Assembly: GCA_964556195.1 (NCBI GenBank)
Contig: CAZKVK010000003.1
Coordinates: forward strand, 8,134-66,570
Length of the DNA stretch: 58,437 nucleotides
Source: an uncultured Candidatus Poseidoniales archaeon
Lineage (GTDB): Archaea; Thermoplasmatota; Poseidoniia; Poseidoniales; Thalassarchaeaceae
Reading direction: 5' to 3'
In this document: positions 53,815-58,437 of the stretch, in pieces
Position numbering within the stretch: the stretch's first letter is position 1
How the letters are laid out: each line of letters opens with the position of its first letter
Made by a program: the position numbers and the translations under genes
Notes under the pieces: model-generated
Seen by the model: only the letters and a program-made list of their open reading frames with translations
Told to the model about the DNA's origin: nothing
The model's database searches: none

Positions 53815-54837
53815 TTAGGATTCTACGATGGTTTCCACACTACCAATGATTCTCATCGGCATAGCGTCGAGTTGTGTAATCAATATCTGTGGCGAGCCTT
53901 CGGCTCTAATCCAAAGTGGATTCTCCCATTCAACAGAAATCATGTCTCCTTCAACTTGCTTTATTCTGCCAACAACAAATTGCAAATCAACGGCTGCATG
54001 TATTACATCTTCATTAGATAATTTTCTTTTTTGGAAAGGCGCTGTTTTGATTTTTATCTGGGAATTTTCATGGCGAATAAGTGCCTCTGATTCGGGATGA
54101 ATAATCATACATCCACGATGCAATGCTTCCTCTCTCAGGTTTCTCAATGCAACACCCACACGGTCACCCGCAATGGCCGCGTCAACATCGTCATCCATTA
54201 CTTGCAGAGATCTAACCACCCCTGTTTCATTTGCTGGCAAAATTACTACCTCGTCATGCTTGTTCACAACACCCGATTGCACATAACCGATAGCAACTAA
54301 CCCAACTCCCTTGACGTTGAAATGTTGGTCAACAGGTAATACCAAATTCGATGAGGTATTTTTCGAACCAACCACATCCATGTGTTGATACAGTTCCTCT
54401 CTCAAATCATGTGAATCAGGAACCGATTCATACAACTTCCAAGTCTCAAGGCCGGCCTGTGCGAGAATCATATTGACTTGTTCGGAATCTACCCATTGAT
54501 CCTCTGTAGGATTGATGATCGCAATACCTCTGTCTATTCCAGCCGCACCAAAAGATACCAGAATCTCTCCTAGAGCCGCATCGACATTTGTGATTTCGAC
54601 AATACCGACCTCGGCTACGTTGAGAACTGAGAGAAGAGGTCTAAGTTTCTCCGGATGCCTTAGTGGCCGAAGTAAAGACAGAACGCAGGTTTCACCCTGT
54701 CGCAGTTCTTTGTAAACGTACGATTCAATATCTCGAACATCGTTAGATTTCGCTAACTTTCTGGCAAGTTTTTCACTGCCAACAAAGGCAACATTCAGCA
54801 CCGGCATGGATTGCGCGGGCGGAGATATGGTCATCAA
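53815..54837 (-). CDS. SelB/EF-Tu-like protein with degenerate G domain (aSelBL-like)
   Basis: EF-Tu domain II motifs (VDQHFNVKGVGLVAIG, VRSLQVMD, AGDRVGVAL); no GxxxxGKT or NKxD in the N-terminal domain. Confidence 0.8.
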   Translation of the reverse strand: MMTISPPAQSMPVLNVAFVGSEKLARKLAKSNDVRDIESYVYKELRQGETCVLSLLRPLRHPEKLRPLLSVLNVAEVGIVEITNVDAALGEILVSFGAAGIDRGIAIINPTEDQWVDSEQVNMILAQAGLETWKLYESVPDSHDLREELYQHMDVVGSKNTSSNLVLPVDQHFNVKGVGLVAIGYVQSGVVNKHDEVVILPANETGVVRSLQVMDDDVDAAIAGDRVGVALRNLREEALHRGCMIIHPESEALIRHENSQIKIKTAPFQKRKLSNEDVIHAAVDLQFVVGRIKQVEGDMISVEWENPLWIRAEGSPQILITQLDAMPMRIIGSVETIVES

Positions 54838-55794: not shown

Positions 55795-56649
55795 TTGTTT
55801 GACCGTTTAAGTCAAGCCATACAGACGATTCGGGATATTATGAGCGCAACAAAATTGGCTTGGAATCCGGTGATTTTCGATGATCCGGATGGTGGTAGAG
55901 TTCTGCTCTGGCCTCACCTACCATGCGTTCGAATGCCAACTGTACTCAGAACCCGAGAACATTGGGATGGGATTGCTCTATTAGCCTCCGAGGATGAAAT
56001 CAGAGGATGGCCAGAAGAGGAAAAGGAAGACCAAGAAAGCCCTGGAGTGCATGTTGCTGCAGCTATGGCTTCCGGTACAGTCCTTGGTCGCCTATTGGAT
56101 GATTTGACAATCTACGAAGTCGATGGTCCAACAATTCCCGATCCCGAACCTATGCGGTTACTGCACCACGCAAATAACGCCCGTGGGGGTTTGCCTATTT
56201 ACGCACTTGAACCATCTATGGATGACGAATCATGGGTAGATTGGATGACACGTGCCGCCGATGAGCAGGTATCCATGTCCTCTCTACTTTCTAGCGTCAC
56301 AATTGGTAGGCGTTGGAAAAAATTGCGAAGTGCGAACGCAAGTCGTGTTGAGGCCGCAAAAGGAGTCGATGCAGAATTGGGTGCAGCAGCAGCTTCGAGC
56401 GCAGCATGGTGGCAAGAGGAAAACAAAGGCCTCAGTGCTGAATTAATCTCAGAAAGGTCTTCCCGAATTGTGGCGAGGATTAGAGGCGCTCTTGCAGACC
56501 TTAGAGAGGGCAGGGTTGATGACTCCAATACAACAGGCCCATCTCTGATGGTTCCGGTCCATCAACCACGTCTGCCCTCATTGGTGAGGTCCTTCGAAGG
56601 TTGTCCGGATTCCGAAACCATGCAATCGATGCAAACTCAGGGGGGCTAG
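55795..56649 (+). CDS. Hypothetical protein
   Basis: 284-aa ORF (alternative ATG at 55840); first gene of an apparent three-gene operon. Confidence 0.7.
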   Translation: MFDRLSQAIQTIRDIMSATKLAWNPVIFDDPDGGRVLLWPHLPCVRMPTVLRTREHWDGIALLASEDEIRGWPEEEKEDQESPGVHVAAAMASGTVLGRLLDDLTIYEVDGPTIPDPEPMRLLHHANNARGGLPIYALEPSMDDESWVDWMTRAADEQVSMSSLLSSVTIGRRWKKLRSANASRVEAAKGVDAELGAAAASSAAWWQEENKGLSAELISERSSRIVARIRGALADLREGRVDDSNTTGPSLMVPVHQPRLPSLVRSFEGCPDSETMQSMQTQGG

Positions 56650-56651
56650 TT

Positions 56652-57182
56652 TTGGACGATGATGTTAGGATTAGGGTCAATGTCGAAACTCAGACCTTCC
56701 GTTTCATCCCCAGCAAGCCAATCAATCATAATGACGCGGTTAAACTCGCAAAGGGCATCAAATCGGGGCCTTGGGTTGTAATTAGTCACAAGGAACCTAG
56801 GGCGACTTTCGTGGTGGAGGAGTCAGGTAGCGTTTTAGTTCACGGAATTGCTAGATTAGAGGTTGCCCGATTGGTCATGCAAGAACTTCTCCTAAGTCTT
56901 GGAATGTCTGAAGAAGGATTGCACTCAGAAGCAGGAGATATGTTGGTTAGTTTCTCATTCGGCCGAGCGGTTCTGTTAGACTTGGCAGCGGCGCGATTTG
57001 CGGATGTGAAAAAAGATGAGCGAGTCGGTTGTATTCGCATAGATGCAAATAGGCATAACTGCAATCTTTTGGTATTCAATAATGGCCACGGAGTAGTAAC
57101 CGGACAATCCTCCAAACGAGTCGCCGAGATGGCAGTTCGCCATTGGGGCGCTCAGTTAGACGAGGAAGGCGCATTGGCATGA
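56652..57182 (+). CDS. Divergent TATA-binding-protein (TBP)-fold protein
   Basis: Two TBP-like repeats recognised by eye (EPRATFVVEESGSVLVHG and NLLVFNNGHGVVTGQSS); probable TTG start at 56652 (ORF track start 56601). Confidence 0.6.
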   Translation: MDDDVRIRVNVETQTFRFIPSKPINHNDAVKLAKGIKSGPWVVISHKEPRATFVVEESGSVLVHGIARLEVARLVMQELLLSLGMSEEGLHSEAGDMLVSFSFGRAVLLDLAAARFADVKKDERVGCIRIDANRHNCNLLVFNNGHGVVTGQSSKRVAEMAVRHWGAQLDEEGALA

Positions 57183-58072
57183 GTTTCATCGTCGACAGGC
57201 ACTGGACGGGTCCAGTTGTCGACCAACATATTCACCTAGACCGCTCGAACCGTTATCTATCAGCCATCGAAGAATTCGTTCGGGTTGGCGGAAGTGGAAT
57301 AATGCTGGTTCACAAACCCGGTTTTGGTGGAAGGTTACCCCTCGACAAAGATGGCTATCGTCAAGCATATTCTGAAACCATTTTGATGGCTGAGGAAGTC
57401 AGAGAAAAATTTGCGATTACTGTCGGAGTTGTACTCGGTCCTCACCCAGTTGCTTGGGAACATCAAATCTTAGATTTAGGAATTGATAGAGCTAGTGAAT
57501 TGCACCTTGAATCGGTCGATCTTGCTCTCGAATTGATTGAGGAAGGAAAGGCCCATTGCCTTGGTGAGGTTGGAAGGCCACATTACCAAGTTAGTGAGGA
57601 AACTTGGTCGGCAGCAAATGAAAATCTCTCCCAGATTATGGCTGAAGCCGCCACTTCCAAGGTTCCAATTCAATTGCACGTTGAGGATGCTGGCGCTCAA
57701 ACCTATACTGAAATATCCCAAATGGCGATCCAGGCAGGTCTTCCTATTGAGCAGACGATTAGGCACTATGCCCCTGCAGATGTATCATCGAATTTCACCC
57801 ATGACCTGCCCTGCACGGTTAGCGTTGGTCGAGGCAGTGTGGAGGGCTTGATATCGACTCATGAAAAAGCATCAGCACCATGGGGGATGGAAACGGATTT
57901 TCTGGATGATCCTAGGCGACCTGGTGCTGTTCTCGGGCCCAAGACAATTCCGAAAAGAACCGACGAATTATGTTCTGCTTTATTGGCTGAATATGAACAG
58001 GATGAAGTAGAAAATCTGCTCTTCAAAATACATTCGGAATGGCCGAGTAAATTGTATGGCATACAATTTTAA
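57179..58072 (+). CDS. tatD: TatD-family metal-dependent hydrolase
   Basis: DQHIHLD, GPHP, LGEVGRPH, QLHVE and METDFLDDP motifs; ATGA overlap with the upstream gene. Confidence 0.88.
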   Translation: MSFIVDRHWTGPVVDQHIHLDRSNRYLSAIEEFVRVGGSGIMLVHKPGFGGRLPLDKDGYRQAYSETILMAEEVREKFAITVGVVLGPHPVAWEHQILDLGIDRASELHLESVDLALELIEEGKAHCLGEVGRPHYQVSEETWSAANENLSQIMAEAATSKVPIQLHVEDAGAQTYTEISQMAIQAGLPIEQTIRHYAPADVSSNFTHDLPCTVSVGRGSVEGLISTHEKASAPWGMETDFLDDPRRPGAVLGPKTIPKRTDELCSALLAEYEQDEVENLLFKIHSEWPSKLYGIQF

Positions 58073-58278
58073 TTTCCTTCACCAAATGGAGACTTCAGTT
58101 GGGGTGTGAATGTCAACATACCTCCTATTACAAACAATACTAGGAATCCGAAGAATAGTTGCAAATCACCCCAAGGTAGGGTGTAGCCTAGTAACTCCAA
58201 GACCATCTTCCAAAGTGGTAAATTGATCGGTAAGAAGATGAATAACATCACTATACCTAGCCGCTGCCTTAGAAGCAT
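58069..58278 (-). CDS. Small membrane protein
   Basis: 69 aa with two TM helices; convergent 4-nt overlap with tatD. Confidence 0.55.
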   Translation of the reverse strand: MLLRQRLGIVMLFIFLPINLPLWKMVLELLGYTLPWGDLQLFFGFLVLFVIGGMLTFTPQLKSPFGEGN

Positions 58279-58377: not shown

Positions 58378-58437
58378 GCGTCCGTGGTGTAGGGGTAGCA
58401 CAAGAGGTTTCCAACCTCTTTGCCCGGGTTCAAATCC
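58378..58437 (+). tRNA. tRNA-Gly(TCC), truncated by the window end
   Basis: GCGTCCG-TG-GTGTAGGGGTAGCAC-A-AGAGG-TTTCCAA-CCTCT-TTGC-CCGGG-TTCAAAT-CC... Confidence 0.93.

Follow-up and report, generated by a model that had tools for sequence, protein, structure and literature searches.

The second gene of a three-gene unit at positions 55795-58072 of the window (the whole 58,437-nt stretch of DNA analysed here, from an uncultured Candidatus Poseidoniales archaeon) encodes TBPL, a strongly divergent two-repeat relative of the TATA-box binding protein (TBP). We showed that TBPL is a lineage-specific, functional TBP paralogue. An entire uncultured and globally abundant archaeal order, the Poseidoniales or Marine Group II (MGII), carries this paralogue almost universally and under strong constraint, coupled to a protein of unrecognised fold, the product of the upstream gene unkA. 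TBP is considered to be among the most invariant proteins in the transcription of archaea and eukaryotes, and to our knowledge it is mainly in animals that TBP paralogues without the DNA-kinking residues have been described (TRF2/TBPL1). Two things are new in TBPL: three of the four positions of intercalating Phe no longer hold this residue, and a translationally coupled partner restricted to the order has been gained. As a whole, the data are best explained by an order-specific TBP paralogue which would derive from a tbp gene adjacent to tatD and would form, together with the unkA protein, a two-subunit factor that does not kink TATA DNA; we assign this reading a probability of about 0.55. 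Confidence in the identity of TBPL and in its evolutionary setting is high.

TBPL is a functional, lineage-specific TBP paralogue

The AlphaFold2 (AF2) model of TBPL, built on 23 homologues, reached a mean predicted local distance difference test score (pLDDT) of 93.7 and displayed the topology S1-H1-S2-S3-S4-S5-H2 twice. Comparison of this model with the PDB by Foldseek returned TBPs as all of the best 44 matches, with template modelling (TM) scores of 0.84-0.87 at sequence identities of 17-18%, among them the TBPs of S. acidocaldarius (1MP9; E 3e-13, TM 0.84) and P. woesei (TM 0.87). This resemblance is far beyond chance, and the two-repeat TBP fold proposed by an earlier, sequence-only reading of the window is in agreement with the complete saddle predicted here. 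The claim that both repeats are visible in the sequence held for repeat 2, which was the only part of TBPL matched by PF00352 (30.2 bits, cut-off 22.9). Repeat 1, which scored 11.4 bits against PF00352 in a six-frame search, was recognised only through the structure and through a collinear phmmer alignment; with phmmer as with the family profile, residues 40-175 of TBPL were collinear with P. woesei TBP (1PCZ/1AIS). Like canonical archaeal TBPs (1PCZ/1AIS, 1MP9), TBPL comprises about 180 aa in two tandem domains with the same order of strands and helices; unlike these, it shares so little identity with them, falls below every NCBIfam TBP model (all seven at 19.8 bits or less, cut-offs 181-347) and has lost the Phe, FPG and Asn residues described below. 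A global hhalign comparison of TBPL with canonical TBPs aligned only repeat 2, and this to canonical repeat 1 at a probability of 9.5%; the alignment was discarded as a comparison of folds and used solely for the residue register, together with HMMER alignments.

A profile search of 1.84 billion representative proteins retrieved 70 relatives of TBPL, the majority of them fragmentary, with no canonical TBP among the matches at E<1e-3; the TBPL family is therefore narrow and well separated. Its named members come from Candidatus Thalassarchaeum, Thalassarchaeaceae, Poseidoniales and Marine Group II metagenome-assembled genomes, where the source labels vary between 'TATA-box binding protein' and hypothetical protein.

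A canonical TBP is encoded on another contig of the same genome (1.52 Mb, 87.6% complete) at G000:C6:39741-40424. It was detected with 89 and 79 bits by PF00352 and holds the VVNVVAST and QNMVATY motifs, both EQFPG and both (L/I)(M/I)F motifs and all four Phe residues. As all seven Poseidoniales of the phylum sample likewise possess a canonical TBP, TBPL co-exists with a true TBP and is not the basal TBP of its genome; the sequence-only reading, which had called it 'not a basal factor', was right in this respect. Two genes for transcription factor B (TFB) are present in the genome (G000:C14:20491-21042 and G000:C35:13087-13620), one canonical (91 and 80 bits against PF00382) and one divergent (53 and 50 bits). 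The divergent TFB is a possible candidate partner of TBPL.

The canonical TBPs of Poseidoniales show a peculiarity of their own, namely a stretch inserted between QNMVATYALHYPEDY and RKLNLNxLTFHL where repeat 2 begins (L015:1209-1934; L161-L166), which measures about 20 aa in most Poseidoniales and about 50 aa in the genome studied here. The genome G005 (L166:2207-3970) encodes a TBP of 587 aa, in which the linker between the repeats is extended by a further insertion of about 360 aa. TBPs of other Thermoplasmatota comprise 182-215 aa.

Whole-genome searches identified TBPL as a single-copy gene in 195 of 201 Poseidoniales genomes. It was found in 60 of the 61 high-quality genomes, in 24 of 24 genera and in three families of the order, and it was absent from eight genomes of the sister order and from about 229 other Thermoplasmatota genomes, apart from one match of 22 bits. 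Within a genus-level group, dN/dS was 0.049 for TBPL, 0.109 for unkA and 0.092 for the TatD-like gene, and no stop codons interrupted TBPL in about 195 genomes. The value for TBPL identifies it as a functional gene. Over larger distances TBPL changes rapidly: its identity between the two large Poseidoniales families is 33-39%, whereas the canonical TBPs of both families are at most about 0.1 changes per column apart, in a single clade in which no internal branch exceeds 0.05 changes per column. The internal branches of the TBPL clade are at least ten times longer than those of this canonical clade.

The residues of yeast TBP were mapped onto TBPL by the HMMER and hhalign registers and an order-wide alignment of 17 TBPL sequences, with the following result:

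F99: Gly or Ser in TBPL (17/17 sequences; sequence/profile alignment)
F116: Glu or Asp in TBPL (17/17 sequences; sequence/profile alignment)
F190: Val, Leu or Ile in TBPL (17 sequences; sequence/profile alignment)
F207: Phe or Trp in TBPL, aromatic kept (17/17 sequences; F142 in the protein studied here)
T124: invariant His in TBPL
T215: variable in TBPL (Thr, Leu, Ile, Ala or Ser)
N159, the central Asn of repeat 2: Asp, Glu, Pro, Gly or Ser in TBPL
N69: position held by Thr or Asn in TBPL, alignment uncertain
L114, V122, V161 and V213: mostly aliphatic in TBPL

Repeat 1 has lost its FPG motif and both Phe residues, and the FPG motif of repeat 2 is lost as well. The sequence-only reading had noted that the FPGL motifs and most DNA-contacting residues were gone and that a single LVF was retained. 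According to the alignments, three of the four intercalating Phe positions and N159 appear to be replaced, and the retained motif contains F142, at the position of yeast F207. With these residues, TBPL would no longer kink TATA DNA. Fifteen TBPL residues are invariant across the order (E12, R17, F18, P49, T52, G59, H64, G65, A72, E78, G84, G95, H135, G145 and W165); 11 of them, E12 through G84, lie in repeat 1, and this half is the better conserved one. In repeat 2, conservation of the stirrup facing TFB is moderate to poor across the order, and D122, at the first Glu of the TFB-contacting Y-E-P-E stirrup, is nearly invariant. The net charge of TBPL is neutral to acidic.

The unkA-TBPL-tatD unit

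All three genes are located on the forward strand in the order unkA, TBPL, TatD-like hydrolase, and comprise the following features:

55795..55839, + strand: leader or promoter region of the unit, non-coding, with a conserved GACCGTT at 55801-55807
55840..56649, + strand: unkA, orphan protein of 269 aa, ATG at 55840, TAG stop at 56647-56649
56652..57182, + strand: TBPL, divergent two-repeat TBP paralogue of 176 aa, TTG start, TGA at 57180-57182
56670..56909, + strand: TBPL repeat 1, residues about 7-86, from AF2 secondary structure, order-wide alignment and residue mapping
56919..57167, + strand: TBPL repeat 2, residues about 90-172, from the PF00352 match and AF2; keeps one aromatic, F142
57179..58072, + strand: TatD-like metal-dependent hydrolase of 297 aa (PF01026), ATG at 57179-57181

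The open reading frame (ORF) coordinates agree with the tight spacing that had been described, with a gap of 2 nt between the unkA stop and the TTG start of TBPL and an ATGA overlap of the TBPL stop with the TatD-like start. The TTG at 56652 aligns with the ATG start of homologues. Shine-Dalgarno-like purine runs precede both downstream genes (GGGGGG at 56640-56645 ahead of TBPL, GAGGAAGG at 57162-57169 ahead of the TatD-like gene). The start of unkA had to be revised: the ORF had been listed as 55795-56649 with a TTG at 55795, but the ATG at 55840 is the more likely start, from which the homologues align, and gene callers give unkA 264-266 aa on related contigs.

Searches by tblastn covering 89 related loci from 80 species-level genomes revealed that the order unkA-TBPL-TatD is kept wherever the contig has room. 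The triad was also kept in ten of ten distant genomes, from the other large family and distant genera, in which TBPL is 33-39% identical and the flanking genes differ. The proposed three-gene module, not described before, is thus conserved as a unit across Poseidoniales. Nearly all genomes have either a 4-nt overlap of unkA and TBPL or no more than about 10 nt between them. The spacing between TBPL and the TatD-like gene is looser in one family, at about 60 nt, while unkA and TBPL stay overlapped there. The divergent 4HBT thioesterase gene is retained beside the triad in the window's own family only; in the other large family the triad lies directly 3' of a giant surface-protein gene.

In the locus examined (L108:11-4177), this gene encodes a surface protein of 1388 aa with a C-terminal membrane anchor; its stop codon and the start of unkA overlap in a GTGA. 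Across genomes, the cytoplasmic tail of the giant surface protein (...QWTQEEIQGYFDQGW...DWVxNQ) is conserved.

The unkA protein yielded no match in Pfam, NCBIfam or PDB sequences, including profile searches. Its AF2 model is of mixed alpha/beta type (pLDDT 91.7, predicted TM score 0.90), and Foldseek found nothing in the PDB at E<1e-3. The best match, 7w5z_E (TM 0.43), was judged spurious, and an assignment to the TraB/GumN/Tiki type, considered for the PDPE and RxxxRxRG motifs, was rejected with no such structure among the Foldseek matches. A collection of 5.8 billion metagenomic proteins contains 164 homologues of unkA; the named ones are nearly all hypothetical, and those with a taxon label belong to MGII or Thermoplasmatota. 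In the phylum sample, unkA was present in 7/7 Poseidoniales and in 0/54 other Thermoplasmatota, and no homologue was found beside tbp in the loci fetched from other Thermoplasmatota. As unkA is confined to Poseidoniales in the sample, like TBPL, both genes have an identical phyletic pattern. The exclusive co-occurring partner of TBPL is unkA and not TatD.

The third protein matched PF01026 with 71.4 bits (cut-off 27) over profile positions 1-242 of 253. Sixteen sequences from across the order share without exception its metal ligands H17, H19, E130, H167, H196 and D240 and an extra motif, DDxRRPGAVLGPKTxPKRT; the GE(V/I)G and LH motifs could be aligned with E. coli YjjV (1ZZM). With 19.1 bits against TIGR00010 (cut-off 206) it is not a member of the bacterial YchF/TatD exonuclease subfamily. 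A search of PDB sequences with the single sequence found no chain at E<0.01, and a profile search gave only weak matches to the TatD family. The TatD-like gene is single-copy in 58 of 61 sampled Thermoplasmatota.

Comparison of the coordinates of both genes in each genome, with ORFs checked in the fetched loci (L148-L158), revealed that in 11 of 54 Thermoplasmatota genomes outside the Poseidoniales (G252, G221, G211, G231, G230, G251, G225, G241, G214, G223 and G242) a canonical tbp directly precedes the TatD-like gene, both being on one strand and at most 100 nt apart. These genomes span at least eight families, with a 4-nt overlap of tbp and the TatD-like gene in L149 and L150; the pair is separated by about 390 nt in G235 and by one other gene in G216. 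As the chance of such an adjacency is about 1 in 1000 per genome, tbp and tatD constitute a conserved gene pair, and TBPL occupies the slot which in these relatives holds the canonical tbp. A position upstream of the TatD-like hydrolase is accordingly a feature shared by TBPL and the canonical TBP of many Thermoplasmatota, and the linkage to TatD says nothing specific about TBPL. The special partnership of TBPL and TatD which had been deduced from their adjacency is therefore not upheld, given that the same TatD-like gene directly follows canonical tbp in relatives. In the literature searched, we found no paper on a tbp-TatD link or on a TBP paralogue of Poseidoniales; the recurrence of the pair across Thermoplasmatota is an unexplained association in its own right, for which no description was found there either.

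Origin and possible function of TBPL

In a maximum likelihood TBP tree (LG+C20+F+G4), TBPL and the canonical TBPs of Poseidoniales were recovered as two separate clades, each with 100/100 support; the stem of the TBPL clade measured about 6 substitutions per site. An attempt to place TBPL on this tree failed, the attachment point not being recovered with so long a stem. Every sampled genome of the sister order encodes a second, moderately divergent TBP of 183 aa (L171-L176; e.g. L171:4016-4567), the gene for which always lies between Dph2-like and PP-loop ATPase genes. Its repeat 1 is without FPG and its repeat 2 is near-canonical; it scored weakly against the TBPL profile (22-29 bits) and grouped with TBPL in the tree, at only 53/50 support and with a risk of long-branch attraction. 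Like TBPL, this protein is an extra TBP beside the canonical one and has lost the FPG of repeat 1; unlike TBPL, it matches canonical models strongly (about 100 bits) and has neither unkA nor TatD alongside. In eight of eight sister-order genomes neither TBP gene shows linkage to the TatD-like gene. Possibly, tbp was duplicated already in the common ancestor of the class.

The most parsimonious history would start from a duplication of tbp at or before the origin of Poseidoniales. One copy would have kept the basal duty, remaining extremely conserved, with the insertion at the start of repeat 2 and at a location elsewhere in the genome. The copy adjacent to tatD would have been freed from this duty and would then have lost the central Asn of repeat 2 and three of the four intercalating Phe positions, one of which turned into an Asp/Glu that is invariant. 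The gene order argues for such a descent of TBPL from a TatD-linked tbp gene.

Co-translated with unkA, TBPL probably binds the unkA protein, and the pair may act as an alternative (non-TATA) initiation factor or as a regulatory factor, possibly with the second, divergent TFB. For the functional core of this reading, namely that TBPL and the unkA protein constitute a two-subunit TBP-fold factor which works in transcription initiation or regulation without bending TATA DNA, we put the chance at about one in three. Alternatively, the concave face of the TBPL saddle may have come to accommodate a protein or some other ligand. The TatD-like hydrolase would be co-transcribed through the gene order shared with canonical tbp genes, and it is not necessarily a physical partner of TBPL. 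A more elaborate proposal is that in the MGII ancestor a TatD-linked TBP was relieved by a second TBP and was rebuilt, with a newly arisen protein of orphan fold, into a non-kinking two-subunit factor, a prokaryotic counterpart of the animal TBP-related factors, perhaps for non-TATA promoters; this proposal is tentative and the odds are against it. If the pair does act in transcription, specialised TBP-related factors arose independently in archaea, and TBPL would offer a handle on gene regulation in Marine Group II.

Several points weigh against the reading of TBPL as a tatD-slot paralogue acting with unkA. The complex of the two proteins is deduced solely from co-occurrence and translational coupling, and the residue mapping of TBPL derives from sequence and profile alignments instead of superposed coordinates. 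The repeat-2 stirrup expected to face TFB is poorly conserved in the alignment and does not appear to favour conserved TFB binding. The TBP tree cannot place the TBPL clade, the grouping with the second TBP of the sister order reaching only 53/50, so that duplication inside the lineage, an older duplication and transfer of either copy are not distinguished. Finally, the missing tbp-tatD linkage in the sister order weakens the positional argument, but does not remove it.

In haloarchaea and Methanosarcina, families of TBP genes allow a combinatorial choice of promoters by TBP/TFB pairs; these paralogues are canonical in sequence with Phe pairs, whereas TBPL is not. The metazoan TBPL1/TRF2/TLF factors are thought to act at non-TATA promoters. 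TBPL1 is a paralogue beside TBP which is altered at DNA-contacting signature positions (PMC7221094). As a TBP-fold paralogue co-existing with TBP it would be the closest functional analogy to TBPL. The origins are independent, with TBPL1 being specific to eukaryotes and TBPL to one archaeal order; TBPL1 keeps most signature residues, while archaeal TBPL is far more diverged, and TBPL1, unlike TBPL, lacks an obligatory co-encoded partner. The monopartite TBP-domain proteins of Thermococcales and haloarchaeal TbpA are likewise divergent proteins of unknown function which occur beside a normal TBP (Brindefalk et al. 2013, PMC3597702); the monopartite proteins possess a single domain of 82-136 aa, whereas TBPL has both repeats.

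A simpler explanation, which we consider unlikely, would be that TBPL alone is an initiation factor of alternative specificity, the saddle of which reads a non-TATA element, a mode also suggested for metazoan TBPL1/TRF2, and recruits one of the TFBs, with unkA as a mere neighbour. It is consistent with the intact saddle fold (AF2, Foldseek), with the aromatic residue kept at F207 and the aliphatic ones at the positions of L114, V122, V161 and V213, with the nearly invariant D122 at the first Glu of the Y-E-P-E stirrup and with the presence of two TFB genes, one of them divergent; TBPL1 provides a precedent for an altered Phe position (PMC7221094). However, Asp/Glu at F116 and Gly/Ser at F99 would remove the kink of repeat 1, the net charge is neutral to acidic, and the strict co-occurrence and coupling with unkA are left unexplained.

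Distinctly less probable is a role of TBPL as an accessory subunit or regulator of the TatD-like hydrolase, in which the TBP fold would bring in or gate the nucleic acid to be cleaved or modified, in the manner of the TBP-like domain of RNase HIII, and the tbp-tatD pairs of other lineages would go back to an old functional tie. The tight tbp-tatD pair recurs in Thermoplasmatota and is kept in every Poseidoniales genome examined, the catalytic ligands of the hydrolase are intact, and in RNase HIII and DNA glycosylases TBP domains are employed to bind nucleic acids (PMC3597702). On the other hand, tbp and tatD are unlinked in most sampled Thermoplasmatota, including the sister order, TatD is phylum-wide while TBPL is order-specific, and in the family with the gap of about 60 nt it is unkA, not TatD, that stays overlapped with TBPL.

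More doubtful still is a decoy or sequestering saddle, by which TBPL, with or without the unkA protein, would bind TFB, canonical TBP or another factor, but not DNA, and so tune global transcription. The loss of the DNA-kinking residues, the acidic substitution on the presumed concave face, the preserved TBP fold and the strong purifying selection would all fit such a function, but the repeat-2 stirrup facing TFB is among the less conserved parts of TBPL, and conservation is concentrated in repeat 1, for which no archaeal partner is known. That TBPL is a decaying duplicate without a function of its own, kept only as a member of the operon, is effectively refuted, since in spite of evolving much faster than canonical TBP it has a dN/dS of 0.05, below both neighbours, is single-copy, near-universal and free of stops in about 195 genomes, and has 15 order-wide invariant residues and a confidently predicted fold.

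Leader and neighbouring genes

The ACCGTT core of the GACCGTT element in the leader is located at a fixed distance of -39 to -33 from the unkA start codon. Core and spacing are kept in nearly all of the 46 related loci displayed, down to 48% protein identity, with one ACCGTC and one ACCGCT as variants. The element is absent in the other large family, in which unkA abuts the giant surface-protein gene, and it is not enriched in the window (16 matches, 11.4 expected). For these two reasons it was rejected as a genome-wide motif and treated as a local promoter or regulatory element. The leader of unkA contains no AT-rich TATA box; an AA(G/T)C core lies 3' of ACCGTT, at the position expected for the TATA box of a leaderless transcript.

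Upstream of the unit, the window encodes on the reverse strand (53815-54837) a protein of 340 aa which matches EF-Tu domain 2 (PF03144) only, no GTPase domain being detected in it; its gene is kept beside that of the thioesterase in related loci. The last ~60 nt of the window (58380-58437) resemble a tRNA 3' half that is truncated at the end of the window, but ARAGORN reported no tRNA there. Convergent with the TatD-like gene, a small hydrophobic ORF of 69 aa is located on the reverse strand at 58069-58278, and genes of 66-70 aa have been called at its place on related contigs.

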